Assembly: GCA_937862805.1 (NCBI GenBank)
Contig: CALMDO010000062.1
Location: 26,380 to 90,379, forward strand
From: an uncultured Bacteroidota bacterium
GTDB taxonomy: Bacteria > Bacteroidota > Bacteroidia > Bacteroidales > FEN-979
DNA length: 64,000 nucleotides
Reading direction: 5' to 3'
The notes beneath the pieces were generated by a model. It did not search any database. It was given only the letters and a program-made list of their open reading frames with translations, and had not been told where the DNA came from. Of this stretch, positions 25,439 through 42,334 are shown one piece after another (position 1 is the first letter of the stretch; each line of letters begins with the position of its first letter). A program made the translations under genes and the position numbers.

Positions 25439-25993
25439 TCACCGGATTAGTTTTAACAACCGGTTGTACCAGCTCCGTCCGTATTTTCGGATGAGCGCCT
25501 CTTCCAGGAACAGGTATAAAGGGGTCTTCTCCAGGTAGCCCTTTTCCAGGGCTTTCCGGCAAATGGGCCATTTGTGGTAATTGAGCAGCTCGTTGAGCGA
25601 AGTCCGCTTTATCCTGATCGGGTAGAGATGACAGGAAAGGGGCTTTTGAAACGGAACTTTCTTTTCGAGGAATGCTTTTTCGATGGCACAAAAAGAAATT
25701 CCATTTTCTGTGTAAGCAAACACGCAGGCTTTACCGTCGGCCAGGGGGGTGACAAAATTCCCCTCCGCGTCGTAGTCGAAAACTCCGGCATTTTCAACCT
25801 CACGGATCCCTTCTGACTCCATAAAAGGTTTGATTTCATCAATGGCATCTTCAAGCAGGGAGATTTCTTCCTCCTCCAAAGGTGCGCCGGCATCCCCTTC
25901 CACACAGCAGGCTCCTTTGCACTGTTGAAGATCGCAGGAAAAGAAAGTGGTCCGAATCTCTTCCGAAATCAGCGTGTCATCTAACGCGATCAT
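25439..25993 (-). CDS. DUF3109 family Cys-rich protein
   Basis: [24 protein letters not shown]-terminal Cys cluster is typical of DUF3109. Overlaps the upstream EF-G stop by 17 nt. Confidence 0.6.
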
Positions 25994-28058: not shown

Positions 28059-28096
28059 AAGCAGTACCTGTATTTTGGGTCCCTTTTTTGGGCGCG

Positions 28097-28104
28097 CAAA
28101 GGTA
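28097..28104 (-). promoter_or_regulatory. Candidate -7 promoter box (TACCTTTG) for the EF-G paralog
   Basis: Reverse complement of caaaggta, 38 nt upstream of the ATG at 28058. Confidence 0.4.
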
Positions 28105-28187
28105 CAACAAATTCATGAAAATTGTTCATCCTTACGGAGAAGCGCTTTTCCGGGCAATGAAGGGAGGAATGGAGCGGAACGGAGGGA

Positions 28188-28823
28188 CTAAAATCTTTTA
28201 ACGTACCCGTGACAATAAGGGGTGGAGCCTTTATGGTAATAGTAATCCTGGTGGTAGTTTTCGGCTTTCCAGAATTTGGTGGCCGGTTTGACTTCTGTTA
28301 CAACAGGATATCCCTTCTTTTTCAATTCGGCAATGAGTTGCAGGGTAATCTCTTTTTGTGTTTCATCAAGGTAAAAAACGGCCGATCGGTATTGTTCTCC
28401 GACGTCGGGACCCTGGCGGTTCCATTGTGTCGGATCGTGGATCTCAAAAAACAAGCGCGCTACCTCCTCATAACTGGTCCGCGCAGGATCGAAAATCACC
28501 TCTATGGCCTCATAATGACCGGTGGTACCCGAACAAACCTCTTCATAGGTAGGATTTTCGGTGGTTCCTCCGGTATATCCAACCGTGGTAGAGATCACCC
28601 CATTAATCCGTTTCATGTAGTACTCCACTCCCCAGAAACATCCTCCTGCAAACAGAGCAGTAGAATATTTACCGTCGGTATTCTCTTTTTGTTCTTCTGA
28701 TTTAAGTTTGTCTGATTTCATGGTCTCACTTTTTTTACCGGTCATGGTTTCATTCCCCTGTCCGCAACCGGTCATTGATAGAAGCAATGAAACGATGAGC
28801 ATTGGAACAATTGGTTTGATCAT
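28188..28823 (-). CDS. msrA: Peptide-methionine (S)-S-oxide reductase MsrA, lipoprotein form
   Basis: Leader ...LLLSMTGC, then the catalytic GGCFWG motif. Confidence 0.9.
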   Translation of the reverse strand: MIKPIVPMLIVSLLLSMTGCGQGNETMTGKKSETMKSDKLKSEEQKENTDGKYSTALFAGGCFWGVEYYMKRINGVISTTVGYTGGTTENPTYEEVCSGTTGHYEAIEVIFDPARTSYEEVARLFFEIHDPTQWNRQGPDVGEQYRSAVFYLDETQKEITLQLIAELKKKGYPVVTEVKPATKFWKAENYHQDYYYHKGSTPYCHGYVKRF

Positions 28824-28853
28824 GAGAAACGGCCTTGTTTTTTGGCATTGTGA

Positions 28854-29348
28854 TCAAAGAACAAAGATTTTTTCAACTTTGGTGATGACGCCCGAGGTAA
28901 GCCTGATATAGGCATCCCCTCTTTTTACCTGGCCGTTGATATCGAAGGTGCTTTCTTTTAATCCTTCTCCATAAACCACCTGGTTCATCAGGGTTTTGAT
29001 CAGTGTTCCGTCGCAGGCGAGCAGCTCGATCTTGACCTTTTGCCCGTTCTCTGAATCATAAATTACGTTAATGTAGCTGTTCACCGGGTTTGGCATGATC
29101 CTGACCTTGAAATTCTGCCTTTGACGGAATTTCCCTTTACACAGGATTTCTTCGGGAATGGGATATTCCTTGAACGGCTCGTACCTTCTCCGGATGACTG
29201 TTTTTTTTACCTCCGTTACCTTTTTGGTGACGACTGGTTTTTCAATGATACGCGGGCGGCGGCAGGGACAATCGTCGGCTACGGTCTGGGCCGGGCTTTC
29301 CGAAACAAGGAAAAAAACGATCAGGGTGCAAAAAAAGGAAGTTTTCAT
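28854..29348 (-). CDS. Small secreted protein with T9SS C-terminal sorting domain
   Basis: Signal peptide, about 65-aa basic Cys-containing segment, then a CTD starting IMPNPVNSYINVIY and ending KVEKIFVL. Confidence 0.6.
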   Translation of the reverse strand: MKTSFFCTLIVFFLVSESPAQTVADDCPCRRPRIIEKPVVTKKVTEVKKTVIRRRYEPFKEYPIPEEILCKGKFRQRQNFKVRIMPNPVNSYINVIYDSENGQKVKIELLACDGTLIKTLMNQVVYGEGLKESTFDINGQVKRGDAYIRLTSGVITKVEKIFVL

Positions 29349-29491
29349 TGGATCACTGTTGCTTTTTTGTTCTTATACGGGACTGTGAGCAGAGGGTTAC
29401 ATTTTTTTGCCGGAAATAAGTAAATGCGACTTTCTCGGAAGTCTTTGTGGGTGCGCCGGGGACAACTGTCGTTTTCCGGCGGGATAATTGC

Positions 29492-29499
29492 TACCTTTG
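29492..29499 (+). promoter_or_regulatory. Candidate -7 promoter box (TACCTTTG)
   Basis: Matches TAnnTTTG, 21 nt upstream of the ATG at 29521. Confidence 0.4.
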
Positions 29500-29520
29500 C
29501 CTCGCTTAAAACAAAACAAG

Positions 29521-30513
29521 ATGAAGAAGATACTTGGGATGGGCAATGCCTTGGTAGATATCATGATAACGCTGGAAAGCGATACCATTCTGCAGATGCT
29601 GGATCTGCCCAAGGGGAGCATGCAACTGGTCGATGAAGTACGCAGCAATGCGGTGCTTGAGGCTTTAAAAAGTTATGATAAACGGCAGTCAGCCGGTGGA
29701 TCGGCGGCCAACACCCTTCACGGACTGGCGATGTTGGGGATGCCCAGCGGGTATATCGGCGTGGTCGGGGAGGACGCTTTAGGAGGCGTTTTTGTAAGGG
29801 ACATGATCAGGGCCGGGGTGGAACCCCATCTGGTACACAGCACCACTGAAACAGGCCGGGCCATTGCATTGGTGACGCCTGATTCCGAACGGACTTTCGC
29901 AACCTTTTTAGGGGCTGCCATTGAACTTACGGCAGCCCATCTGGAACCCGGTGTCCTGCGGTCCGGTGATTCCGTTTTTGACGGTTATTCCTTGTTCCAT
30001 GTGGAAGGCTATCTTGTCCAGAACCATGAACTGATCCGCAAGGCGGTTGAGATGGCTAAATTCCATGGTTTGAAGGTCTCCCTCGACCTGGCCAGTTATA
30101 ACGTGGTGGAGGATAACCGCGAATTTCTTCAGGAAATCATTACCCGGTATGTCGATATTTTATTTGCCAACGAAGAAGAGGCCAGGGCGATGACCGGGAT
30201 GGGGCCTGCCGATGCAACCCGTGAGTTAGGCAAATTTACCGAGATCGCTGTAGTCAAGACCGGCAGTAACGGCTCATTGGTGAGGACTGTTACGGAATGC
30301 TGCGAAATAGGCATCATCCCTGTCAAACCGGTTGATACAACCGGCGCCGGGGATCTTTATGCTGCCGGATTCCTTTTCGGCCATTCCATGGGATTGCCGA
30401 TGCAACGCTGCGGTGAATTGGGGGCTCTGTTAGCCGGAAACGTCATTGAATTCATTGGTTCCAAGATGAGCAATGATCGCTGGCAACAGATTAAAAATCA
30501 AATAGAAAGATAA
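29521..30513 (+). CDS. PfkB-family carbohydrate/adenosine kinase
   Basis: MKKILGMGNALVDIM..., GGSAANT, C-terminal DTTGAGDLYAAGF anion-hole motif. Start trimmed to the ATG at 29521. Confidence 0.8.
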   Translation: MKKILGMGNALVDIMITLESDTILQMLDLPKGSMQLVDEVRSNAVLEALKSYDKRQSAGGSAANTLHGLAMLGMPSGYIGVVGEDALGGVFVRDMIRAGVEPHLVHSTTETGRAIALVTPDSERTFATFLGAAIELTAAHLEPGVLRSGDSVFDGYSLFHVEGYLVQNHELIRKAVEMAKFHGLKVSLDLASYNVVEDNREFLQEIITRYVDILFANEEEARAMTGMGPADATRELGKFTEIAVVKTGSNGSLVRTVTECCEIGIIPVKPVDTTGAGDLYAAGFLFGHSMGLPMQRCGELGALLAGNVIEFIGSKMSNDRWQQIKNQIER

Positions 30514-30594
30514 CTTTTCCGGGAACATTACTCTTTCCCGGGTCGGCCCGAAAAATCGTAACCACTTGTTGTTGGTTATATTCAGGGCTTTTTG

Positions 30595-30602
30595 TAATTT
30601 TG
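30595..30602 (+). promoter_or_regulatory. Candidate -7 promoter box (TAATTTTG)
   Basis: Matches TAnnTTTG, 56 nt upstream of the ATG at 30659. Confidence 0.4.
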
Positions 30603-30658
30603 CAACCTTTTCACGAATTATATCCTTTTCAAGTACTTACATTAATTTCCAAGTTGTC

Positions 30659-32794
30659 ATGAAGGTATACCAAACCAATGAGATCCGTAACATCGCGCTG
30701 ATCGGCGGCGCAAAATCAGGAAAAACGACACTGGCGGAAGCCATGCTTTTTGAAGGAGGTGTGATAAACCGCCGGGGTACAGTTGAAGACAAGAACACGG
30801 TATCCGATTATCGTCCCATCGAACTTGAACGCCAGAATTCGGTCTCGGCTTCTGTCCTTTATACGCTGTGCGATAACAAAAAAATCAACATCATCGATAC
30901 CCCGGGTTTTGATGATTTCTGCGGAGAGGTGATCTCAGCCTTGCGGGTGGTTGATGCCGCCGTGATGGTAGTGAACGCTCAAAATGGTGTCGAAGTCGGA
31001 ACCGAAATCACCTGGAGATATACCAGCAAGGCTGCGAAACCCGTCATCTTTGCCATCAACCACCTTGACCAGGAACACGCCAATTTTGATGAAACCATTC
31101 GTCAGTTGAAACATCAATTTGGAAAGAACATCACCCTGATGCAATACCCCGTCAACGCCGGATCCGGGTTTAACAGCATCATTGATCTCCTGAAAATGAA
31201 GATGTACAAATTCCCTTCCGGCGGAGGAAAACCTGAAATTAGCGATATCCCGGCCGGCGACAAGGGCAAAGCCGAGGAGATGTACATGGCATTGGTTGAA
31301 GAGCTTGCTTCCAAAGACGAGTCGTTGATGGAGGTCTTTTTCGACAAGGGAACCCTCTCCGAGGAACAGATGCAACAGGCCCTGAAAACCGGTCTTATCC
31401 ACAGGACCATCTTCCCGGTGATTTGTGTCGGCGCAAAACAGGATATGGGCGTTGGCCGTCTGCTGGAGTTTATCGCCGGCAGCGTTCCGGCCCCGAATGA
31501 AATGCCCGCCGTCAAAACAACTGACGGGAAAGAGTTGACCTGCAAAGTGACCGATCCCGCTTCAGCTTTTATTTTCAAAACCTCTGTTGAACAGCATCTC
31601 GGCGAGATCTCCTATTTCAAGGTTTATTCCGGTGAGATCACTGAAGCCCTTGATATGATTAACCCTAACCGGCAATCAAAGGAACGGATTTCTCAGATCT
31701 TCGTCATCAATGGCAAAAACCGCGAAAAAGTGGAAAAAATGGTCGCCGGCGATATCGGAGCCACCATCAAACTGAAAAATTCCTATACCAACAACACCCT
31801 GAATTCCCTGAAAAATCAGGATGATATAATCGAACAGACCGTCTATCCCGACCCGAAATTCAGGACCGCAGTTAAGGCCAAAAACACCGCTGACGACGAA
31901 AAAGTGAGCAGTGTTCTGAATGAATTGGCCAAAATGGATCCGACGCTTTTAATGGGTTATTCCCGAGAACTGAAACAAATGATCCTTCAAGGTCAGGGTG
32001 AACTTCACCTGAACCTGGCCAAATGGCATGTCGAAACCCTCGAAAAGATTCCCATTGAATATTATGCTCCCCGCATTCCCTACCGCGAAACCATCACCAA
32101 GTCGGCTAAGGCAATGTACCGACACAAAAAACAATCGGGTGGTTCCGGCCAGTTTGGTGAAGTTCACATGATGATCCAACCCTGGCGTGAAGGAATGGCC
32201 GACCAGACCGAATTCCCCATCCGTGGACGCGATGTGATCGATCTGGAATGGGGCGGAAAATTACTGATGAACAACTGTATCGTCGGTGGCGCTATCGATG
32301 CCCGCTTCATGCCGGCAATCCTCAAAGGGGTGATGGAAAAAATGGAAGAAGGGCCCCTCACCGGTTCGTATGCAAGGGATATCGTTTTCAATGTTTATGA
32401 CGGGAAAATGCACCCGGTCGATTCCAACGAAATCTCTTTCAAACTGGCCGGCCGGAATGCCTTCAAAGAGGCATTCAAGAATGCAGGCCCCAAAATTCTT
32501 GAACCTATCTATGATGTGGAAGTGATCGTACCGGAAGATAAAATGGGTGAAGTCATGACCGACCTCCAGGGACGCAGGGCTGTCATCATGGGGATGGACA
32601 GTGAGGGCAACTACCAGAAAATTATGGCAAAAGTTCCGCTGGCCGAATTGAACCGTTATTCCACTGCGCTGAGCTCCCTTACCAGCGGCCGTGCTACCTA
32701 TAACATGAAATTTGCTGAATACTCACAGGTGCCGGGCGATATTCAGGATAAGCTGCTCAAAGCCTACGAAGAACAGGAGAAAGAAGAAGAATAG
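30659..32794 (+). CDS. Divergent EF-G paralog (EF-G2-like) with degenerate GTPase motifs
   Basis: 711 aa from the ATG at 30659. EF-G five-domain architecture, but G1 is GGAKSGKTT, switch II is DTPGFDDF (His replaced by Phe), G4 is NHLD, and switch I lacks RGITI. Confidence 0.85.
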   Translation: MKVYQTNEIRNIALIGGAKSGKTTLAEAMLFEGGVINRRGTVEDKNTVSDYRPIELERQNSVSASVLYTLCDNKKINIIDTPGFDDFCGEVISALRVVDAAVMVVNAQNGVEVGTEITWRYTSKAAKPVIFAINHLDQEHANFDETIRQLKHQFGKNITLMQYPVNAGSGFNSIIDLLKMKMYKFPSGGGKPEISDIPAGDKGKAEEMYMALVEELASKDESLMEVFFDKGTLSEEQMQQALKTGLIHRTIFPVICVGAKQDMGVGRLLEFIAGSVPAPNEMPAVKTTDGKELTCKVTDPASAFIFKTSVEQHLGEISYFKVYSGEITEALDMINPNRQSKERISQIFVINGKNREKVEKMVAGDIGATIKLKNSYTNNTLNSLKNQDDIIEQTVYPDPKFRTAVKAKNTADDEKVSSVLNELAKMDPTLLMGYSRELKQMILQGQGELHLNLAKWHVETLEKIPIEYYAPRIPYRETITKSAKAMYRHKKQSGGSGQFGEVHMMIQPWREGMADQTEFPIRGRDVIDLEWGGKLLMNNCIVGGAIDARFMPAILKGVMEKMEEGPLTGSYARDIVFNVYDGKMHPVDSNEISFKLAGRNAFKEAFKNAGPKILEPIYDVEVIVPEDKMGEVMTDLQGRRAVIMGMDSEGNYQKIMAKVPLAELNRYSTALSSLTSGRATYNMKFAEYSQVPGDIQDKLLKAYEEQEKEEE

Positions 32795-33030
32795 ATTTTT
32801 GGACAAACATGATGCCTACGCGGTATTGCGGTACCGTGATCATGTCAGTCATCATGGCTCACCATCCTCTGTTTTGCCCTTATTCCCTCTGTTATTTTCG
32901 GAAGTTTGATGACCTTGCTGATCGTGGGTGTAACAGCTCACAAAGCGCCCGCTTTACGAAGACTCAACCTGATGGAAATCATCCGTCCGATCAAGGTTGT
33001 TTCCAGTGGATGAAGAACCGTTTTTTTTAG

Positions 33031-33038
33031 TATTTTTG
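33031..33038 (+). promoter_or_regulatory. Candidate -7 promoter box (TATTTTTG) for the kbl-acpS-acs-acp-AOS operon
   Basis: Matches TAnnTTTG, 28 nt upstream of the ATG at 33067, directly after a T8 run. Confidence 0.4.
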
Positions 33039-33066
33039 AATCCCTTTAACTATACAAACAACTACC

Positions 33067-34266
33067 ATGTACGGCACATTTCAGGAGCATCTGAGAAAAC
33101 AACTCGAAGGCATCCACGATGATGGTCTTTACAAGACCGAGCGCATTATCACAACCCCCCAGGGTGTAGAGATACAGACTGACCGCGGGCAAAAAGTACT
33201 CAATTTCTGCGCCAACAATTACCTGGGATTATCCAATGATCCCCGGGTTATGGCAGGTGCGAACTACACGTTTTTCCGGTACGGATACGGCATGTCATCC
33301 GTACGGTTTATTTGCGGTACCCAGAAAATCCACAAAGATCTCGAAGCCAAGTTGAGTGAATTCCTGGGCACAGAAGACACCATTCTTTACTCTTCGGCTT
33401 TTGATGCTAACGGCGGCGTTTTCGAACCCCTGCTGGGCGAACAGGATGCCATCATCTCTGACGAACTGAACCACGCATCCATCATTGACGGGGTGAGGCT
33501 TTGCAAAGCACAGCGCTTCCGTTACAAGAATAACAACATGGAAGATTTGGAAGAGGTGCTGCAGGACGCTTCAGAAGCCCGTTTCAAACTGATCGTGACC
33601 GATGGTGTTTTTTCCATGGATGGCATCATTGCCCAGGTCGATAAAATATGTGACCTTGCTGAAAAATACGACGCGATGGTGATGGTCGATGATTCACACG
33701 CCACCGGTTTCGTCGGGCAGACCGGCCGGGGCACCATGGAATATTGCAATGCACAGGGCAGGGTCGACATCATCTCCACCACTTTTGGAAAAGCACTGGG
33801 AGGCGCCTCCGGGGGTTGCATCTCCGGAAGAAAAGAGATCGTGGAATTGCTTCGTCAACGGTCTCGCCCTTACCTTTTCTCCAACACACTGACACCTGCC
33901 ATCACAGGAGCCACCCTCGAAGTACTGAACATGCTCTCGGAAACCACCGTCCTGCGTGACAAACTGTTCGAAAATACACGGCAGTTCAGGGAGGGAATGG
34001 CAAAAGCCGGATTCCGCATCGTTCCCGGGATTCACCCCATCGTACCCGTCCTGTTCGGCCATCTTCCTAACGACGCCAAACTGTCACAGGAATTTGCCAA
34101 CGAACTCCTTGAAGAGGGTATCTATGTAATCGGTTTCTATTATCCCGTAGTCCCTAAAGGGAAATCGAGGATCCGTGTACAAGTCTCGGCAGCCCATTCG
34201 CACGAACAAATCGCTTTTGCCATCGATAAATTCACCAAAGTCGGTAAAAAACTGGGAGCCATTTGA
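33067..34266 (+). CDS. kbl: Glycine C-acetyltransferase (2-amino-3-ketobutyrate CoA ligase)-like alpha-oxoamine synthase, paralog 1
   Basis: 399 aa. Collinear with my recollection of E. coli Kbl: [43 protein letters not shown]-Lys motif [19 protein letters not shown]. Confidence 0.8.
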
Positions 34267-34643
34267 TCAAAGGGACCGGTATCGATATCATCGAGGTGGA
34301 GCGTATCCGGAGCGTGATGGAACGCGATACCGGTTTCCGCGACAAGATCTTTACCCCTGAAGAGATCCGCTATTGCGAATCAAAAAAAAACAAGTACCAG
34401 CATTACGCCGCCCGGTTCTCAGCCAAAGAGGCTCTGATGAAAGCCATCGGGACCGGGTGGCGGTTTGGTATCCGCTTTGCGGATATAGAAGTATTTCACA
34501 ACGACCTGGAGCAACCTCAAATCAAAGTCTCAGGAAAAGCCAATGAATTGCTTTCCGATTTGGCTATCTCAAAAATTCATGTATCTTTATCGCACCTTAA
34601 AGAATTGGCGACCGCCATCGTGATCATTGAAAACGAACCCTAA
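34263..34643 (+). CDS. acpS: Holo-[acyl-carrier-protein] synthase (AcpS-type PPTase)
   Basis: 126 aa. [11 protein letters not shown]-terminus, [10 protein letters not shown], trimeric AcpS size. TTG start overlaps the kbl TGA (TTGA). Confidence 0.85.
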
Positions 34644-34653
34644 TTCAGGTGCT

Positions 34654-36357
34654 ATGACCAATATTGTTTCTTACGAGGAGAGAATCAAAAGTTTTAATTG
34701 GGAAATCGCAGAACAAGAGTTGAACTATCAGACCGGACAGGTGATCAACATCGGCTGGTATTGCTCCGACCGGATTTGTCATTTGGGTAAAGCCGATAAA
34801 CCCGGTCTTATCTGGGAAGGCTCATCAGGCATTGAAAAACGGTACACTTACAATGATATCCGATTAAAATCCAACACGATAGCGCAGTTTTTACAGGATC
34901 TTGGCATCAGGCCGGAAGAACGGGTTTGTTTGTTCATGGATAAGATTCCTGAGCTCTATATCGGTTTTTTAGGGATTCTCAAGACCGGCGCCATCGCTCA
35001 ACCGCTTTTTTCGGCTTTCGGCGATGAATCACTTTTCATACGGCTTGACAATGCCCGGACCACGGCCATCATCACACAAAAAAAACATGCTCCCAAGGTT
35101 CGCAAAATACTGGGCAAAATGCCCTACCTCAAACACCTGATCCTGGTTGATGCCGAACCGGGTAAGCCCTTAGGGGAACGAGAGGTCGCACTGAACATGG
35201 ACGAAGCCGAAAATGTAGAGCATTTCCAATGTTTCCCCACGAAAGCCGAATCGCCTTCTGTTTTGCATTATACCTCCGGCACTACCGGTCAACCCAAAGG
35301 GGTGAAACATGTCCATTACTCGCTGATATCACAATACCTGACCTCCAAGTGGGTCCTTGACCTCCGCGAGGAGGATATCTATTGGTGTACCGCCGATCCG
35401 GGATGGGTTACCGGTACCTCTTACGGGATTATTGGCGCTTTCAGCAACGGGGTGACCCAATGTGTCCTCGATGCCGGCTTTTCAGCTGAAAGCTGGTACC
35501 GTTTTATCGAGAAGCACCGGATCTCTATGTGGTATTCTGCTCCTACAGCCATCCGATCATTGATGAAAGCGGGAGAGGAGGTGATCCGGAAATACGACCT
35601 CTCCTCTCTACGCCATCTGGCTTCCGTGGGCGAACCCCTCAACTCCGAAGCCGTCATCTGGAGTGAAAGGGTTTTTGGCAGACCCTTTTTAGATACTTAC
35701 TGGCAAACCGAAACCGGTTCGATCATGATCTCTAATTATCCTGGAATGAAGATCAAACCAGGATCGATGGGAAAACCTTTCCCGGGTATAACGGCGACCG
35801 TGATCCATCCGGAAACATACCAACCCTACGACGAGCCCGGCCGGATAGGATTGATCGCCCTGAAACCCGGCTGGCCTTCGATGATGCGGGCGTACTGGAA
35901 CAATGAAGAAACCTACCGGAAAAAATTCCGAAACGGCTGGTACCTGCCCGGCGACCGCTCCTCCATTGACAGCGAGGGGTATTTCTGGTTCGTGGGCCGC
36001 GACGACGACGTGATCAATACAGGTGGCCACCTGGTCAGCCCTTTCGAAGTGGAATCAGCCTTGCTTGAGCATCCGGCTGTGGCCGAATCAGCAGTCGTTT
36101 CAAAACCCGATTTTGTCAACATGGAAGTGGTCAAAGCTTTTGTAACACTAAAACCCGGCTTCTTCCCCAGTAGCGATCTTGACCTCGATATCATGAATTT
36201 TGTCCGGAAAAAATTATCACCACTGGCCATGCCCCAGGAAATCGAATTCATCGACAACCTTCCCAAAACCCGCAGCGGAAAGATCATGCGCAGGATTCTT
36301 CATGCCAAAGAGTGGGGAGAAGAGATCGGAGATACTTCAACACTGGAGAATGATTAA
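34654..36357 (+). CDS. AMP-forming acyl/acetyl-CoA synthetase family adenylating enzyme (AcsA-like)
   Basis: YTSGTTGQPKG (A3), WCTADPGWVTG, YWQTETG, A10 PKTRSGKIMRR. Closest in feel to short Bacillus-type AcsA. Start taken at the ATG at 34654. Confidence 0.85.
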   Translation: MTNIVSYEERIKSFNWEIAEQELNYQTGQVINIGWYCSDRICHLGKADKPGLIWEGSSGIEKRYTYNDIRLKSNTIAQFLQDLGIRPEERVCLFMDKIPELYIGFLGILKTGAIAQPLFSAFGDESLFIRLDNARTTAIITQKKHAPKVRKILGKMPYLKHLILVDAEPGKPLGEREVALNMDEAENVEHFQCFPTKAESPSVLHYTSGTTGQPKGVKHVHYSLISQYLTSKWVLDLREEDIYWCTADPGWVTGTSYGIIGAFSNGVTQCVLDAGFSAESWYRFIEKHRISMWYSAPTAIRSLMKAGEEVIRKYDLSSLRHLASVGEPLNSEAVIWSERVFGRPFLDTYWQTETGSIMISNYPGMKIKPGSMGKPFPGITATVIHPETYQPYDEPGRIGLIALKPGWPSMMRAYWNNEETYRKKFRNGWYLPGDRSSIDSEGYFWFVGRDDDVINTGGHLVSPFEVESALLEHPAVAESAVVSKPDFVNMEVVKAFVTLKPGFFPSSDLDLDIMNFVRKKLSPLAMPQEIEFIDNLPKTRSGKIMRRILHAKEWGEEIGDTSTLEND

Positions 36358-36400
36358 AAAGAAAAAACTGAACTCAAATTAATATCCACCCCAAACACAT

Positions 36401-36405
36401 AGGAG
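36401..36405 (+). promoter_or_regulatory. Shine-Dalgarno-like AGGAG upstream of the carrier protein gene
   Basis: AGGAG lies 8 nt before the ATG at 36414. Most starts I inspected in this window lack any SD. Confidence 0.4.
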
Positions 36406-36413
36406 AAAAATCA

Positions 36414-36656
36414 ATGGACGAAATGAAAGATGTAATCAAAAATTACGTGATCAAAGAGTATGTTGAAGACGACACGGAGATCACTTACGACACACCTCTG
36501 ATCTCGGGAGGCATTGTTGACAGTTTTTCGATGGTTTCGCTGAAACGCTTCCTTGAAAACAAGTACAAGATCGCCATTCCTGATGATAAAGCTACCCCGG
36601 AAGCCTTCGATTCCGTGGACAAAATCTGTCAGTTAGTCGGGAATTACCTGAAATAA
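36414..36656 (+). CDS. Acyl/peptidyl carrier protein, DltC-like
   Basis: 80 aa. Phosphopantetheine-attachment context GGIVDSFSMVSL. The pattern after the Ser resembles D-alanyl carrier proteins rather than FAS AcpP (DSL...). Confidence 0.75.
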   Translation: MDEMKDVIKNYVIKEYVEDDTEITYDTPLISGGIVDSFSMVSLKRFLENKYKIAIPDDKATPEAFDSVDKICQLVGNYLK

Positions 36657-36657
36657 A

Positions 36658-36664
36658 AAGGAGG
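36658..36664 (+). promoter_or_regulatory. Strong Shine-Dalgarno-like AAGGAGG upstream of AOS paralog 2
   Basis: AAGGAGG lies 4 nt before the ATG at 36669. Confidence 0.45.
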
Positions 36665-36668
36665 AATC

Positions 36669-37916
36669 ATGGCCTATACAGAAAAAACCCGCGGCATCTA
36701 TTCAGAAATTCTTACCGGTCTCAAAGAGGCTGGCCTCTTCAAACAGGAACGCTATATTCATTCCTCCCAATCGGCCGATATTGAAGTGGAATTTCCTACC
36801 GGCGCCAACCTTAAAAAGGTGATCAACATTTGCGCCAACAACTACCTGGGAATGTCAAGCCACCCGGAAGTGGTGAAAGCCGCTCATGCGGGTCTCGATT
36901 CACATGGGTATGGCATGTCGTCGGTCAGGTTTATCTGCGGAACACAGGATATCCACCGTACACTGGAAAACATGGTGACCCGATTTCTGGGAACCGAAGA
37001 CACGATCCTTTTCCCATCCTGTATGGATGCCAATGCCGGCGTTTTTGAAGCCATACTGACCAAAGATGACGTGATGATCTCCGACCGCCTGGTCCACGCC
37101 TCCATCATCGACGGAATCCGCCTTTGCAGCGCCATGCACGACACTTTCAAGCACTCCGATATGGAGCACCTGGAAGAGAAACTTCAGCTTCACAACGACA
37201 AACGGCTGAAAATGGTGATCACCGATGGTGTCTTTTCAATGGATGGCGATACCGCCCGGTTGGACAAGATGGCCGCGCTGTGTGAAAAATATGATGCTTT
37301 GCTTTTCATGGACGATTCCCATGCCAGCGGTTTTATCGGTAAAACCGGGCGTGGAACCCATGAAAAATGCGGGGTGATGGGGCAACTTGATATCATCACA
37401 ACCACCTTTGGCAAAGGGTTGGGAGGTGCTTCCGGCGGATGTGTTTCGGGCCGCCGCGAACTGGTTGAAATGTGCCGCCAGAAAGCAAGACCCTACCTCT
37501 TCTCCAACACCATTGCCCCTCCGGTAGTCGCCGGCGTCATCAAAGTACTGGAAATCCTCTCCGCCTCCACCGATCGCCGCGATAAACTGGAACGCAACAC
37601 CGAATTCTGGCGCAAAGGTTTGACTGACGCCGGGCTCATCATCAAAGAAGGGGATACCCCCATCGTCCCGGTGATGCTCTTCAACGCCAAACTGTCTCAG
37701 AATGTGTCCCATGACCTTTATGAAGAGGGCATCTACGCCATCGGTTTCTTCTTCCCGGTTGTGCCTCAGGGGCAGGCCCGGATCCGTACCCAGATCTCCG
37801 CCGGCCATGAAATCCATCACCTTGAAAAAGCACTTGAAGCTTTCAAAAAAGTGGGAAAAAAATACGATATCCTGGGAAAAACCAAAGCCGAGATCATCGA
37901 AATGTATGGTATGTAA
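36669..37916 (+). CDS. Alpha-oxoamine synthase, diverged Kbl-like paralog 2
   Basis: 415 aa. [28 protein letters not shown]-Lys TFGKGLGGASGG, RPYLFSN. Differs from paralog 1 and Kbl around the His motif (SDRLVHASIIDGIRLCSAMHDTF) and has a C-terminal extension. Confidence 0.8.
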   Translation: MAYTEKTRGIYSEILTGLKEAGLFKQERYIHSSQSADIEVEFPTGANLKKVINICANNYLGMSSHPEVVKAAHAGLDSHGYGMSSVRFICGTQDIHRTLENMVTRFLGTEDTILFPSCMDANAGVFEAILTKDDVMISDRLVHASIIDGIRLCSAMHDTFKHSDMEHLEEKLQLHNDKRLKMVITDGVFSMDGDTARLDKMAALCEKYDALLFMDDSHASGFIGKTGRGTHEKCGVMGQLDIITTTFGKGLGGASGGCVSGRRELVEMCRQKARPYLFSNTIAPPVVAGVIKVLEILSASTDRRDKLERNTEFWRKGLTDAGLIIKEGDTPIVPVMLFNAKLSQNVSHDLYEEGIYAIGFFFPVVPQGQARIRTQISAGHEIHHLEKALEAFKKVGKKYDILGKTKAEIIEMYGM

Positions 37917-37935
37917 AACTTCAACAAACCTTTTT

Positions 37936-38463
37936 ATGAAAGCTGTACTCAAAATAATAACGTTTCTCTTGTTCGTCATCAGCCTGGGAATGGGAACTGT
38001 TGGTTTCGCCCAACCTGTTGCCAAACCTTATGATGAGAACCAGGATGCCCGCGCTGAACTCAAAAAGGCGCTGGCCCGGGCTGAAAAAGAGAACAAAAAT
38101 GTGCTGATCCAATGGGGTGGTAACTGGTGTTCCTGGTGCATGCGATTCCATGCCATGGTGAACGGCGTCCCCGCGATCGATTCCCTGATGAAAGAAAATT
38201 ATATCTATTTTCTGCTGAACGTTCCTCAGGCAAAAGATAAACGGGATAATGCCCTTTTTCAGGAGTATGGTTTTCCTAACCGCTTTGGATATCCTGTCTT
38301 CGTGATTTTGGACAAGAATGGCCAACGGCTGAATACCCAGGATTCAGATGCTTTCGAATACCGGGATCCCAATGTGAAGGGATACGATACGGCCAAAGTG
38401 ATCCGCTTTTTGACCCTTTGGACACCGAAAGCGTTGAATCCCGCCACTTATCAAAAACATTGA
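37936..38463 (+). CDS. Secreted thioredoxin-fold protein (CxxC)
   Basis: Signal peptide MKAVLKIITFLLFVISLGMGTVGFA. WGGNWCSWCMRF CxxC motif. Start trimmed from the track ORF, which overlaps the AOS gene. Confidence 0.7.
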   Translation: MKAVLKIITFLLFVISLGMGTVGFAQPVAKPYDENQDARAELKKALARAEKENKNVLIQWGGNWCSWCMRFHAMVNGVPAIDSLMKENYIYFLLNVPQAKDKRDNALFQEYGFPNRFGYPVFVILDKNGQRLNTQDSDAFEYRDPNVKGYDTAKVIRFLTLWTPKALNPATYQKH

Positions 38464-38558
38464 TCCGGAAGCAAAAGAAAACCACTCTTGTTACCGGGTA
38501 GTGCAATGAACAGCGGAAAAAACCATTGATCCCTGTTCGGTGAGATGATTATAGGCAA

Positions 38559-41243
38559 ATGAACATCCACAAACTCAATCCTGTCTTCAATCCTCAACGG
38601 ATTGCTTTGATCGGGGTATCGACCAATCCCAACAGTGTCAGCGGGAAAGTCCTGATCAATCTGGTCAGCGGGGGATTCCGGGGAGTGGTTTACCCGATCA
38701 ACCCGGAGTATGAAGCAGTGATGGGTATTCCCTGCATCCCCTCGGTCAGCAGTTGTCCTAAAGTTCCTGACCTGGCGATCATTTGCACTCCGGCCGAAAA
38801 AGTCCCGAAGGTGATCGAAGAATGCGGCGTTGCAGGTATCCGGGGAGTGATCATCCTTTCTGCCGGTTTCCGGGAAACCGGCGAAACCGGAAAACAACTC
38901 GAGGAAGAGGTGAAGCAGGTGATCAGGAAGTACGACGGAATGCGGGTGATCGGCCCGAACTGCCTGGGGATCATCGTTCCTGCTTTGAAACTGAATGCCA
39001 GTTTTGCGGCGGCAATGCCGGCACCCGGGCACATTGCTTTCATTTCGCAATCGGGCGCCTTGTGCACTTCGGTATTGGATTGGGCCCTTGAAGGAAAGAT
39101 CGGTTTTTCGCAATTTGTCTCTATCGGTAACAGCCTGGATGTGGAATTTGGCGACCTGATCGATTATTTTGGCGAAGACGAGAACACCCGTTGTATAATC
39201 CTGTACATTGAATCGATCGGGAATCCCCGTAAGTTCATGACGGCAGCCCGTGCCTTTGCCCGCAGGAAACCGATCATTGTTTACAAGGCAGGTCGCTTCC
39301 CGGAATCGGCCCAGGTTGCTGCATCTCACACCGGAGCCATGGCTTCGGAAGATGCGGTGTACGACGCGGCATTCAGAAGAGCCGGACTGGCAAGGGTTTA
39401 TGAAATAGGGGACATTTTCAGCGTTGCGGAGCTGATCGGACGAAACAGGTTTCCCGGTGGGCCAAGACTGGGGATCATCACCAATGCCGGAGGCCCCGGG
39501 GTGATGGCCACGGATGCCCTGATCGCTTCCGACGGTGTCCTGGCTTCCCTTTCACCGGAGACCCTGTCTCTTCTCAACGAAAACCTCCCTGAATACTGGT
39601 CACATGGCAACCCCGTTGATGTCCTGGGCGATGCACGGGCAAAACGGATCGGCAAAGCCACCCGGATCGTTCTCAATGATCCCGGAGTGGATGCCGTACT
39701 CGTCATCCTTACCCCCCAGGCCATGACCAACCCCTGCACTACAGCCAAAGAGATCAGCGCTCTGGTAACGGAGACCCACAAACCGCTTCTGGCGGCCTGG
39801 CTGGGCGGGCAAAGCATGCATGAAGCCGATGATATCCTGGTCGAAAACGGAATCCCTTCCTATAAGACTCCTGAACAAGCTATCCGGGCTTTTATGACGC
39901 TGGTTTCCTACCAACGGAACCTGGAGACCTTATATGAAACACCCAGGGATATCCCGTTGGAGTTTTCCGTGGACCGGAATAAACTGAGAAAAGATTTCCT
40001 CCGGGCAATCAAAGGGAAAGGAGCGGTATTGACCGAAACCTTGTCAAAATCGATCCTTGCTTCCTATGGCATTCCCATAACAACACCGTTTTTTGCTCCC
40101 TCCCGCGAGAAAGCTGTGACCATTGCCCATACCATCGGATACCCGGTGGTGATGAAGATCCAATCGCCCGATATCACTCATAAATCAGATGCCGGGGGCG
40201 TCATCCTCAACCTTACCGGCGACCAACAGGTTACAGACTCTTTTACAAAAATCACTGACGATGCCCGGAAATCATTTCCTCAAGCTGCTATTGAGGGAGT
40301 GACATTGCAAAAGATGTTCCATGCCAAAGAGAGCGTTGAGCTGATCCTTGGAATTAAAAAGGACAAAGTTTTCGGAACGGTTCTCATGGTCGGTACCGGA
40401 GGGACTACGGCAGAACTTTTCAGTGATAAAGCGCTTGGATTCCCCCCCCTGAACGAAAGGCTCGCACGCCACATGATCGAATCCCTGAAGATCTATCCGC
40501 TGTTAAAAGGTTATCGGGGAACCCGGAGTAAAGATGTGGAAGGACTGATCCGCGTGATGATCCGGTTGTCGTACCTTGCCGCCGATTTTCCGGAAATAGC
40601 TGAACTGGATATCAATCCGCTGCTCGTTACCCCTGATGAAGTCATTGCCCTCGACGCCCGCATTGTTCTCGATAATAACCTCCCGACAAAAGGTCTACCC
40701 GGCTACCACCATTTGGCGCTTCATCCCTATCCCGAAAAGTTTGTCCGGCAGACGACCCTGCACGACGGAACCCTGGTGACCCTTCGTCCCATCAAACCGG
40801 AAGATGAACCCCTGTGGCTCGAAATGTTAGGGTCTTGTTCACGAGAATCATTGTACAGCCGCTTCCGATATTTTTTTCATTGGGAGACTCACGAGGTAGC
40901 GGCCCGTTACTGTTACATCGACTATGATCGCGAAATCGCCATCGTGGCTGAAATCGTCGAAGAAAACAGAAAAAAACTAATCGGCGTCGGCCGGCTTATC
41001 GCTGATCCTGACCATGAAAGCGTGGAATACGCCGTACTGGTGGCCGATGCCTGGCAGCAAAAAGAACTGGGTAACATCCTGACCGATTTCTGCCTCGAAA
41101 CAGCCGCTTCATGGAGTCTGAAAAAGATCGTGGCGCAAACCACCACCGATAATACCCGGATGCTCTCCGTATTGCGTAAACGTGGTTTCGAGATTTCTGT
41201 CAATGATCAGGATTCCACCGTTGACGTTTCACGGACGATCTGA
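38559..41243 (+). CDS. Bifunctional ADP-forming acyl-CoA synthetase-like / GNAT acetyltransferase (Pat/Pka-like)
   Basis: 894 aa. CoA-binding N-terminus, SCS/ACD alpha-like region with AASHTGAMAS, ATP-grasp middle (GYPVVMKIQSPDITHKSDAGGV), C-terminal GNAT (AVLVADAWQQKELG). Confidence 0.85.
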   Translation: MNIHKLNPVFNPQRIALIGVSTNPNSVSGKVLINLVSGGFRGVVYPINPEYEAVMGIPCIPSVSSCPKVPDLAIICTPAEKVPKVIEECGVAGIRGVIILSAGFRETGETGKQLEEEVKQVIRKYDGMRVIGPNCLGIIVPALKLNASFAAAMPAPGHIAFISQSGALCTSVLDWALEGKIGFSQFVSIGNSLDVEFGDLIDYFGEDENTRCIILYIESIGNPRKFMTAARAFARRKPIIVYKAGRFPESAQVAASHTGAMASEDAVYDAAFRRAGLARVYEIGDIFSVAELIGRNRFPGGPRLGIITNAGGPGVMATDALIASDGVLASLSPETLSLLNENLPEYWSHGNPVDVLGDARAKRIGKATRIVLNDPGVDAVLVILTPQAMTNPCTTAKEISALVTETHKPLLAAWLGGQSMHEADDILVENGIPSYKTPEQAIRAFMTLVSYQRNLETLYETPRDIPLEFSVDRNKLRKDFLRAIKGKGAVLTETLSKSILASYGIPITTPFFAPSREKAVTIAHTIGYPVVMKIQSPDITHKSDAGGVILNLTGDQQVTDSFTKITDDARKSFPQAAIEGVTLQKMFHAKESVELILGIKKDKVFGTVLMVGTGGTTAELFSDKALGFPPLNERLARHMIESLKIYPLLKGYRGTRSKDVEGLIRVMIRLSYLAADFPEIAELDINPLLVTPDEVIALDARIVLDNNLPTKGLPGYHHLALHPYPEKFVRQTTLHDGTLVTLRPIKPEDEPLWLEMLGSCSRESLYSRFRYFFHWETHEVAARYCYIDYDREIAIVAEIVEENRKKLIGVGRLIADPDHESVEYAVLVADAWQQKELGNILTDFCLETAASWSLKKIVAQTTTDNTRMLSVLRKRGFEISVNDQDSTVDVSRTI

Positions 41244-41260
41244 CAACCTTTAAACCAAAA

Positions 41261-42208
41261 TCAGGAGAGCTTTTTCCCGATTTCGCGAAGCATCACTTCC
41301 GTCATGGCGGGCAAGTCGTAGCAATAATTCAATCCCCAGTCTTTTTTAGCCACTTCATCGTTGATCCGGGCCGGCCATGAGTCGGCAATGGCCTGCCGAA
41401 AGTCGGGTTTATAGGTGATTTCAAAATCAGGAATGTGTTTTTTAATCTCCGCGGCAATTTCTTTGGGTGTGAAGCTGATGCCGGCAATGTTATAGCTGGA
41501 ACGCAGTGAAAGGCGCGAGGAATCGGCTTCCATCACGTCGATGGTTGCTTTGATGGCGTCGGGCATAAACATCATCGGAAGCGCGGAGTCGGGGCCCAGG
41601 AAACATTCATATTTTTTCTGACGGATGGCCTCATAAAAGATCTCTACTGCATAATCGGTTGTACCTCCGCCCGCTTCCGTCTTGTAACTGATCAAACCCG
41701 GGTACCTGACACTGCGGGTATCTACCCCGTATTTGTTGAAATAGTACTCAATCCATCGTTCTCCGGCCAATTTACTGATACCGTAAACCGTATTGGGTTC
41801 CATAATGGTATATTGCGGGGTATCGAAACGGGGAGTGGTGGGCCCGAAAACAGCTATGGAACTGGGCCAGAAGATTTTTTTCAGTTTCAGTTCACGGGCC
41901 AGTTCCAACACATTCATCAGGCTTCGCATGTTGATATCCCAGGAGGGGAGGGGACGCTTTTCAGCATTCCCTGAAAGAATAGCGGCCAGATGGTAGACCT
42001 GCGTTATTTTTTCATGTTCAAGGATCAGTTGGAGTTTGGAAGCATCCAGTACGTCTAAAATCTCAAAAGGGCCGCTACCGCTGATCTCAGCGGGAGCAGG
42101 ACGAATGTCGGTCGCAATAACGTTCGAGTTGCCGTAGCCTTTGCGTAGTTCGAGTGTGAGTTCCGATCCGATTTGACCGGAACAACCAATGACCAATATT
42201 TTTTCCAT
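41261..42208 (-). CDS. tdh: L-threonine 3-dehydrogenase, SDR/epimerase type
   Basis: 315 aa. KILVIGCSGQIGSEL Rossmann loop, YGISK catalytic Tyr-x3-Lys, GGGTTDYAVEIFY. Strongly resembles my recollection of the short-chain LTDH family (Flavobacterium, Cupriavidus, mammalian type). Confidence 0.8.
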   Translation of the reverse strand: MEKILVIGCSGQIGSELTLELRKGYGNSNVIATDIRPAPAEISGSGPFEILDVLDASKLQLILEHEKITQVYHLAAILSGNAEKRPLPSWDINMRSLMNVLELARELKLKKIFWPSSIAVFGPTTPRFDTPQYTIMEPNTVYGISKLAGERWIEYYFNKYGVDTRSVRYPGLISYKTEAGGGTTDYAVEIFYEAIRQKKYECFLGPDSALPMMFMPDAIKATIDVMEADSSRLSLRSSYNIAGISFTPKEIAAEIKKHIPDFEITYKPDFRQAIADSWPARINDEVAKKDWGLNYCYDLPAMTEVMLREIGKKLS

Positions 42209-42334
42209 TCTTTTGTTGTTAAAAATTTCACGTAAAAGTAGTAAGAATCAACGAAGTTGTTTCCCGGAGCAAATGATTATCTTTATACTTTAAATTTCTG
42301 ATTGATTTTCAACAACATTTTAATTCAAAAAAAG

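Follow-up and report, generated by a model that had tools for sequence, protein, structure and literature searches.

A Conserved Module of an Acetyl-CoA Synthetase-Like Ligase, a Carrier Protein and a Kbl-Derived Synthase in Bacteroidales and Members of Other Phyla, and Its Possible Role in a Carrier-Protein-Dependent Kbl/Tdh Pathway

Introduction

In Caulobacter and other Rhodobacteria, the AasR-AcpR-SPT system includes a serine palmitoyltransferase (SPT) and operates together with a short-chain dehydrogenase/reductase (SDR), the 'epi' reductase (Padilla-Gomez et al., 2022, PMC9386255). Its logic has been shown experimentally: the ligase loads a dedicated carrier protein, and the alpha-oxoamine synthase (AOS) has a preference for the acyl-carrier (PMC9386255). 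Here we describe a locus of similar architecture in a 64,000-nucleotide stretch of DNA (the window) from an uncultured bacterium of the Bacteroidales (assembly GCA_937862805.1, contig CALMDO010000062.1, positions 26,380 to 90,379 of the forward strand). In this window an AcpS-type 4'-phosphopantetheinyl transferase, an AcsA-like adenylate-forming enzyme (the adenylase), a dedicated carrier protein and an AOS that appears to derive from glycine C-acetyltransferase (Kbl), termed AOS2, are encoded one after the other. A second AOS, AOS1, which resembles an ordinary Kbl, is encoded immediately upstream.

The two systems share a clustered ANL ligase, a dedicated small carrier and an AOS, as well as an SDR that reduces, or in the module would reduce, the 3-keto-2-amino product, and the same rationale, sequestration of an acyl pool, can be proposed for both. 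They differ in that the rhodobacterial system handles a long-chain fatty acid and a decarboxylating SPT makes a membrane lipid base, whereas the module combines an Acs relative with an acetate pocket, a Kbl-derived AOS with a glycine-type loop and a carrier resembling DltC or peptidyl carrier proteins (PCPs). Moreover, the module has a threonine dehydrogenase as its partner SDR and occurs in anaerobes from many phyla. By analogy, the module may be regarded as a C2 parallel of AasR-AcpR-SPT-reductase.

Four further systems are related to single parts of the module. AOS2 shares 54-58% identity, all catalytic residues and the amino-acid loop with Kbl of the Kbl-Tdh pathway (E. coli kbl-tdh; Cupriavidus TDH/KBL), and it is likewise linked in the genome to an SDR-type threonine dehydrogenase, 2-amino-3-ketobutyrate being the expected intermediate. 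However, classical Kbl takes free coenzyme A (CoA) and needs no ligase, carrier or phosphopantetheinyl transferase, while AOS2 belongs to a separate, carrier-adjacent clade with an insertion, a deletion and a C-terminal tail of its own. The adenylase has the acetate pocket and the A10 lysine motif of AcsA (PRK04319; 9G79) and of the S. enterica Acs-Pat system, along with Pat and acetate transporter neighbours, but differs in carrying Leu for Arg526 and four other invariant changes and in sharing an operon with a carrier; CoA may not be its acceptor. With DltA-DltC the module has in common a stand-alone adenylating enzyme and a DltC-like carrier of about 80 amino acids (aa), modified by AcpS or, in the module, presumably so; true Dlt-like operons, in which an MBOAT and a DltD-like protein are encoded, also include relatives of the adenylase. 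The module ligase, however, is Acs-like rather than DltA, and a cytoplasmic enzyme dependent on pyridoxal 5'-phosphate (PLP) is found downstream instead of a membrane transferase; neither MBOAT (DltB) nor DltD was found among the open reading frames (ORFs) at 28000-43000 of the window or the recurrent neighbour clusters of loci L001-L085. Finally, a short acyl group bound to a carrier is also the substrate of AOS domains of the PigH/RedL type and of SxtA (saxitoxin), which takes acetyl- or propionyl-ACP. They are domains of multidomain secondary-metabolite synthases using other amino acids (arginine, serine), whereas the module consists of discrete Kbl-like proteins with a distribution like that of core metabolism. 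To our knowledge, dedicated carriers feeding alpha-oxoamine synthases have so far been known for lipids and secondary metabolites.

Gene Order, Distribution and Constraint

The ORF read-out of the window confirmed five adjacent genes on the plus strand, placed and spaced as a first-pass annotation of this DNA had described them:

33067-34266, plus strand: AOS1, 399 aa, by its sequence an ordinary glycine C-acetyltransferase (Kbl); a neighbour of the module, outside its conserved core
34263-34643, plus strand: AcpS-type 4'-phosphopantetheinyl transferase, 126 aa, TTG start
34654-36357, plus strand: AcsA-like adenylate-forming enzyme, 567 aa from the ATG, which equals the length of its orthologues
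36414-36656, plus strand: dedicated carrier of the DltC / type II PCP kind, 80 aa, attachment Ser37 in GIVDSFSM
36669-37916, plus strand: AOS2, putative Kbl-derived AOS subfamily, 415 aa

AOS1 and AcpS overlap by 4 nt, at the stop of the former and the TTG start of the latter; the later gaps measure 10, 56 and 12 nt. The motifs quoted in that annotation, namely those of both AOS proteins (the second being TFGKGLGGASGG), of the adenylase and of the carrier (GIVDSFSM), are all present, and Pfam and NCBIfam agree with its AOS, phosphopantetheinyl transferase and adenylase assignments.

A scan with one genome per species detected the carrier in at least 540 species genomes, a lower bound, at 72-91% identity, and thousands of close relatives occur in metagenomes. 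According to record titles the hosts span at least six phyla, with Bacteroidales, Aminicenantes/Acidobacteriota, Zixibacteria, Delongbacteria, KSB1 and Ignavibacteriales among others; Prolixibacteraceae and Rikenellaceae are also named. The module is not confined to the Bacteroidota. For synteny, the window proteins were mapped to the best 80 loci in genomes of other species, all of them metagenome-assembled genomes (MAGs), with 16-20 kb taken per locus (loci are cited below by L number and position). The adenylase gene lies directly 5' of the carrier gene in 67 of the 71 loci with enough sequence, the four exceptions including L062, in which the adenylase gene is split into two fragments. AOS2 follows directly 3' of the carrier in 71/72 loci, and AcpS stands upstream, directly before the adenylase, in 58/67. 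This arrangement is far beyond chance, and the search for conserved gene order that had been proposed for this locus thus gave a positive answer across phyla.

AOS1 adjoins the module mainly in Bacteroidales, at times with about 3 kb inserted, and is found at 3-7 kb in a few Aminicenantes. The conserved unit is therefore one of four genes, AcpS-adenylase-carrier-AOS2, without AOS1; of the five-gene operon first suggested, the genes are real and adjacent, while the fifth member belongs to the layout mainly in Bacteroidales. A more distant version of the module occurs in L091, on a 1.85-Mb contig, with identities of 67%, 50% and 67% and AcpS not adjacent. In one Bacteroidales MAG (L033:7496-8240) the carrier comes immediately after AcpS and the adenylase is missing from this position, which may be a real deletion or an assembly artefact.

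The core proteins are unusually conserved across phyla, with identities of 70-87% for the adenylase, 72-91% for the carrier and 73-92% for AOS2, whereas AcpS, threonine dehydrogenase and Pat of the same loci drop to 31-65%. Recent horizontal transfer was considered as a cause of the high identity and was rejected, as both the GC content of the module and that of its third codon positions (GC3) follow each host; module GC tracks the host flanks, and GC3 ranges from 0.38 to 0.97. Core identity of at least 70% over such a GC3 range points to strong purifying selection on long-resident genes.

The Adenylase

The adenylase contains the motifs YTSGTTGQPKG, YWQTETG, GRDDDVINTGG and PKTRSGKIMR and scores 745.6 bits against the PRK04319 acetate--CoA ligase model, just over the cut-off of 729. 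Its best match among solved structures is 9G79 (553 bits, 46-49% identity), a 572-aa acetyl-CoA synthetase that we take to be of the Bacillus AcsA type. In an alignment to S. enterica Acs (2P2F numbering) the pocket residues V310, T311, V386 and W414, which shape the acetate pocket of Acs, are all kept, as is the A10 lysine motif PKTRSGK. Given these pocket residues and the acetate uptake transporters and Pat encoded nearby, the acyl group is almost certainly acetyl.

Five notable positions differ invariantly between the module orthologues (65/65) and four solved Acs enzymes. Among them are two in the A8 hairpin, namely Ser for Gly528 and Leu460 for Arg526, the latter being Arg in all four solved enzymes. 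A role in stabilising the thioester-forming conformation with CoA has been proposed for Arg526 (PMC10455477). When cluster representatives were searched exhaustively, the 'GHL' motif turned up in many other clusters, so that it is not unique to the module. The change from Arg526 to Leu, initially a candidate marker of carrier use, was accordingly reduced to a clade feature, the same motif being present in stand-alone 'acetate--CoA ligases'; being common to such relatives, the Leu is no proof of carrier loading.

Three independent relatives of the adenylase lie in Dlt-like operons with DltC-like carriers:

L086:3061-7680: Dlt-like operon with an Acs-like ligase; spore-related genes on the same contig
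L088:3090-7641: Dlt-like operon with an Acs-like ligase; spore-related genes on the same contig
L093:3088-7629: Dlt-like operon with an Acs-like ligase; spore-related genes on the same contig

The gene order in these operons is DltD-like/DUF1574, MBOAT, a peptide of about 40 aa, a DltC-like carrier of 79-84 aa and the Acs-like ligase. The ligases are 50-59% identical to the window adenylase, with AGHLVSPFEVE at A8 and DTWFQTE in the pocket. Each operon looks like a Dlt machine in which an Acs-type ligase replaces DltA, possibly providing a short-acyl carrier donor for the MBOAT. This ligase clade thus has carriers of the DltC kind as neighbours in two settings that are unrelated to each other. 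The pairing supports carrier loading, and we predict that the adenylase is an acetate:[carrier protein] ligase that may keep CoA ligase activity.

The Carrier Protein and AcpS

The carrier had no match in Pfam, and its matches to NCBIfam carrier-protein models were all below threshold, the DltC model giving 23 bits (cut-off 68). Profile and fold searches group it with DltC, PltL, PigG and aminoacyl carriers, so the label 'DltC-like' that had been given to it is a reasonable one. Its AlphaFold model (mean predicted local distance difference test score, pLDDT, 81) has a carrier-protein fold with TM scores of 0.78-0.82 to PigG and PltL; after these type II PCPs, the nearest predicted fold neighbours are DltC and aminoacyl carrier proteins. 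The net charge is -6. AcpS passes TIGR00516 (99.5 vs. 59.8) and PF01648. It is known that AcpS modifies DltC-type carriers (PDB 7R49; PMC9338922), and the AcpS of this operon presumably turns the apo-carrier into its holo form.

AOS1 and AOS2

Both AOS proteins pass the two NCBIfam Kbl equivalog models (cut-offs 460 and 493 bits), AOS1 with 629.8 and 628.9 bits and AOS2 with 556.4 and 562.7 bits. The best matches of AOS1 in the PDB are the Kbl structures 3TQX (547 bits) and 1FC4 (528 bits), Kbl structures overall giving 485-547 bits; the best solved relatives of AOS2 are likewise Kbl enzymes (431-458 bits). With the AOS proteins, the structure of cysteate-C-fatty acyltransferase (28EH) gave 174-176 bits, compared with 442-547 bits for Kbl structures. 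Against the SPT models the pair reaches 305-331 (CFB; cut-off 640), 270-287 (beta; 500) and 228-230 (alpha; 670), and both fall far under all BioF, ALAS and CqsA cut-offs. The placement against curated models suggested in the first-pass annotation hence puts both paralogues above the Kbl cut-offs, with neither near the SPT, BioF or CqsA cut-offs, and by these scores AOS1 is an ordinary Kbl.

AOS2 is 54% identical to AOS1. Its orthologues are at least 73% identical to one another, 47-59% identical to Kbl of the AOS1 type and 55% identical to Cupriavidus Kbl. Judged by this identity clustering, AOS2 is a distinct, Kbl-derived subfamily outside the orthologous Kbl clade. As to whether it nests inside bona fide Kbl, a point raised earlier for this locus, it does pass the Kbl hidden Markov model (HMM) but clusters as a separate clade. 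About 50 positions are specific to the subfamily relative to Kbl. Its signature comprises an FPxG insertion at aa 42-45, a 4-aa deletion, a conserved C-terminal tail (ILGKTKAEIIEMYGM), Val142 in place of Asn135 beside the PLP-stacking His, and PxCM in place of SxAF at 116-119.

The PLP lysine, the stacking His, the Asp/His pair, the FSNT motif, the carboxylate Arg and the loop SVRFICGTQ are present in both AOS1 and AOS2, and the Kbl catalytic residues and this loop are invariant in 72 AOS2 orthologues. The loop Val is the equivalent of V79 of ThAOS, a demonstrated determinant of amino-acid scope. Because the catalytic residues and the selectivity loop are invariant, glycine is most likely the amino-acid substrate of AOS2. 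The differences from Kbl may be located at the region that binds the thioester partner, and AOS2 is predicted to use acetyl-S-carrier and glycine.

A second AOS is often encoded with the module, and its type varies: Bacteroidales have a Kbl, Delongbacteria an AOS2-like paralogue, and Zixibacteria and Ignavibacteriales an unclassified protein. In the latter (L064:6054-7379, L080:10029-11264 and L082:9570-10994) an AOS of 411-474 aa, under every NCBIfam cut-off, is encoded after AOS2. The Delongbacteria paralogue (L050:8252-9538 and L054:8675-9934), also encoded after AOS2, is about 60% identical to AOS1 and to AOS2; it shares the FPxG insertion and the C-terminal tail with AOS2 but has the Kbl-like Asn135 and SAF.

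Genes Recurring Near the Module

Neighbours were identified by clustering all ORFs of the loci and annotating representatives. Two genes of the window, both missed in the first-pass annotation, belong to the recurrent ones:

38559-41243, plus strand: Pat-like protein lysine acetyltransferase, 894 aa, supported by Pfam and NCBIfam domains
41261-42208, minus strand: SDR-type L-threonine 3-dehydrogenase (TDH), 315 aa, matching PDB 2YY7

The gene at 41261-42208, an 'epimerase' by label, matches the L-threonine dehydrogenase 2YY7 with 437 bits (E 5e-130) and many further TDH entries, which identifies its product unambiguously as an SDR-type L-threonine 3-dehydrogenase, interconverting threonine and 2-amino-3-ketobutyrate. 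TDH homologues were found near the module in 12 loci, and in Zixibacteria and Ignavibacteriales the order TDH-AcpS-ACS-CP-AOS2 is co-directional. The Pat-like protein, with domains like those of ADP-forming acyl-CoA synthetases and a C-terminal GNAT domain, is encoded near the module in 18 loci, Zixibacteria and Aminicenantes included. It is likely a regulator of the adenylase, given the known relation of Pat to Acs and the PKTRSGK lysine motif of the adenylase. The presence of the TDH and Pat-like genes in the window ties the module to threonine and acetate metabolism.

In addition, an AceTr_1/SatP 'acetate uptake transporter' is encoded directly 3' of AOS2 in 17 loci, including two Aminicenantes, and an ActP/MctC-like sodium:solute symporter occurs in five loci, once directly 5' of the adenylase. 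No lipid-synthesis gene recurs among the neighbour clusters of the examined loci.

A Possible Carrier-Dependent Kbl/Tdh Pathway and Its Alternatives

From the gene content, cross-phylum order, residue conservation and family assignments observed here, we infer every catalytic step and the direction of flux. The reading that we favour, while placing its probability somewhat short of even, is a carrier-protein-dependent Kbl/Tdh pathway in which acetyl-carrier and glycine would yield 2-amino-3-ketobutyrate and then threonine. AcpS would make the holo form of the 80-aa carrier. The AcsA-like enzyme would adenylate acetate and pass the acetyl group to the phosphopantetheine thiol of the carrier, which would replace CoA or be preferred over it; this transfer is suggested by the synteny and the pocket residues. 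AOS2 would join acetyl-S-carrier and glycine to give 2-amino-3-ketobutyrate, a condensation suggested by the retained Kbl active site and selectivity loop. Finally, the nearby SDR-type TDH would reduce 2-amino-3-ketobutyrate with NADH to L-threonine; otherwise decarboxylation would give aminoacetone. Acetate would enter via SatP or ActP-type transporters, and Pat would turn the ligase off by lysine acetylation. On thermodynamic grounds, a private, ATP-charged thioester pool could drive the Kbl reaction, which is near equilibrium, in the direction of condensation at any acetyl-CoA/CoA ratio. The uptake-type transporters and Pat favour the activating direction, and the proven AasR-AcpR-SPT-reductase system gives the ligase-carrier-AOS logic an experimental precedent.

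Several points weigh against this pathway. The adenylase exceeds a curated acetate--CoA ligase model, and stand-alone 'acetate--CoA ligases' of about 581 aa share its Arg526-to-Leu change with no carrier nearby. AOS2 passes the Kbl HMM and could use acetyl-CoA. TDH adjacency is limited to 12 of about 80 loci, and L033 has no adenylase next to its carrier. The Bacteroidales cluster also contains an ordinary Kbl, which, if active alongside synthesis, would create a futile acetyl shuttle. Finally, the direction of flux is not fixed by sequence and all catalysis is predicted.

According to the main rival, a serious one although unlikely in our opinion, the same enzymes run in the catabolic direction. 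TDH would oxidise threonine, AOS2 and holo-carrier would release glycine and acetyl-S-carrier, and the ligase, working backwards, would convert acetyl-carrier, AMP and pyrophosphate (PPi) to acetate and ATP, the acetate leaving via SatP. In Bacteroidales, AOS1 (with CoA) and AOS2 (with the carrier) would then divide the carbon of threonine, part of it going to acetyl-CoA for biosynthesis and part serving to form ATP. This would explain why an ordinary Kbl and AOS2 occur in one Bacteroidales cluster, where TDH and Kbl together form the layout of a catabolic tdh-kbl operon. Moreover, record titles indicate hosts that are mostly anaerobic fermenters of sediments, peat and lakes, the Kbl and TDH reactions are reversible, and an AMP-forming Acs makes ATP in Syntrophus aciditrophicus. 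However, ActP-type cation symporters and an AceTr_1 'acetate uptake transporter' indicate import, Pat control is classically linked to acetate activation, the known ligase-carrier-AOS systems operate in the activating direction, and a dedicated carrier offers no obvious gain over CoA for ATP formation. A somewhat less probable alternative is ordinary metabolism, with the adenylase as the acetyl-CoA synthetase of the cell, AOS2 as a second Kbl using acetyl-CoA, a housekeeping AcpS and a carrier serving another pathway. All four enzymes do pass curated models for ordinary functions, adenylase relatives with the same A8 motif stand alone with no carrier nearby, and the adenylase has a typical acs setting with actP, pat and DUF294 as neighbours. 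Nevertheless, such a view leaves three observations unexplained: the carrier keeps its place between adenylase and AOS2 in about 95% of loci over six phyla, at 72-91% identity; AOS2 is a separate clade with the insertion, the deletion and the C-terminal tail described above; and the conservation of the three core proteins far exceeds that of AcpS, TDH and Pat encoded in the same loci.

The remaining alternatives concern the substrates. AOS2 may act on another amino acid (alanine, serine or threonine) or give a decarboxylated product, resulting in a small aminoketone signal, a pyrazine precursor or another cofactor-like product; this we judge more improbable still. ThAOS, a Kbl-like enzyme with the same loop Val, does accept glycine, alanine, serine and aminobutyrate, some of the approximately 50 invariant differences between AOS2 and Kbl lie near active-site motifs in sequence, and a further AOS of divergent sequence is often encoded after the module (AOS3 in Zixibacteria/Ignavibacteriales, AOS2' in Delongbacteria). 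On the other hand, the selectivity loop and the carboxylate-binding residues are those of Kbl, the TDH linkage indicates 2-amino-3-ketobutyrate, and very high conservation over many phyla suits core metabolism more than a signal molecule. We find it hardly credible that the adenylase loads a fatty acid and that AOS2 makes a sphingoid-base-like or capnine-like lipid precursor, even though the architecture resembles AasR-AcpR-SPT and Bacteroidota make sphingolipids and sulfonolipids. By family the adenylase falls among the acetyl-CoA synthetases, with the Trp closing off the acetate pocket still in place, the AOS pair reaches 305-331 bits against the CFB SPT cut-off of 640 and matches the cysteate acyltransferase structure less well than Kbl, and it is acetate transporters, not lipid genes, that recur nearby. 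With the SPT and cysteate scores this low and the Kbl amino-acid loop retained in AOS2, the sphingoid-base-like or ceramide-like product entertained in the first-pass annotation is unsupported. The general scheme that it put forward, from adenylase to dedicated carrier to AOS2, is in turn backed by the cross-phylum adjacency, the pairing of related ligases with DltC-like carriers and the AasR-AcpR-SPT precedent, and it is the long chain that falls away.

Flanking DNA and Further Observations

A sigma-70 promoter and terminator scan gave nothing beyond shuffled expectation and leaves the operon boundaries undefined. One candidate element was noted upstream of AOS1:

33031-33038, plus strand: candidate Bacteroidota-type -7 promoter element TATTTTTG, fitting TAnnTTTG, 28 nt 5' of the AOS1 start

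We regard it as a possible and weakly indicated promoter element, based on the TAnnTTTG consensus of Bacteroides promoters. No riboswitch or leader was detected in Rfam scans of the whole window or, at a permissive threshold, of 32700-38600. Strong Shine-Dalgarno-like sequences precede the start codons of the carrier (AGGAG, 36401-36405, 8 nt 5') and of AOS2 (GGAGG, 36660-36664, 4 nt 5'); Shine-Dalgarno sites are little used in Bacteroidota.

The gap between an EF-G paralogue and AOS1 (32806-33030) contains what is left of an MFS_3 transporter gene from its two ends, namely an N-terminal piece, KHDAYAVLRYRD, and, in a different frame, a C-terminal-like one, VGVTAHKAPALRRLNL. Relatives carry an intact 417-aa MFS_3 gene at the same position, so the window apparently has an internal deletion of about 1 kb there. 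Two EF-G-like GTPases are encoded within 5 kb (25977-28058, minus strand; 30566-32794, plus strand), the second of which, together with a PfkB kinase (29488-30513), is kept upstream of the module in many Bacteroidales loci.

Furthermore, a 452-aa protein with a signal peptide, beta-barrel-like and without a Pfam match, is encoded in 29 loci of Bacteroidales and Aminicenantes (L007:13952-15310, minus strand, among them), on the opposite strand and 1.5-6 kb downstream of AOS2. This outer-membrane-like protein may be a porin with a link to the module. In Aminicenantes (L055:12381-15626 and L068:10850-14185) a signalling protein of about 1100 aa with PHP-Cache-PAS-CBS-DUF294 architecture is found beside the ActP-like symporter that neighbours the module, a pairing typical of acs/actP regions. 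The flanks outside the Bacteroidales gave no functional lead, their peptidases, kinases, TPR proteins and M23/urea-transporter-like protein being lineage-specific.

Significance

Full-text literature searches, incomplete in coverage and thus no proof of absence, returned no description of this module or of Acs-like ligase-carrier pairs. Ligase-carrier-AOS systems are already known as a kind. A version with acetate, Kbl and TDH appears to be new, as do the breadth and the extreme conservation of this one. Annotation pipelines label every part of the module as ordinary. The module also offers an easily testable hypothesis on why cells keep private thioester pools.

The Acs-like ligase clade, which apparently loads DltC-like carriers, could bear on the cytoplasmic acyl donor of some MBOAT acyltransferases. 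More broadly, we consider it possible, with slightly greater reserve than for the pathway itself, that many anaerobes have a CoA-independent branch of central glycine/threonine/acetate metabolism, in which a Kbl-derived enzyme would join acetate from a private, ATP-charged carrier to glycine or release it from threonine. In this reading the same ligase clade would also feed short-acyl carriers to the MBOAT machines of Dlt-like operons. If so, a carrier protein would replace coenzyme A in a step of primary amino-acid/acetate metabolism, and the branch would represent either an alternative synthesis of threonine from glycine and acetate or a new route of substrate-level phosphorylation. Given its occurrence in at least 540 species genomes and its unusually high conservation across phyla, the module may matter for the acetate and threonine metabolism of its hosts, whether in acetate assimilation or in threonine fermentation by uncultured anaerobes of sediments, peat and lakes.

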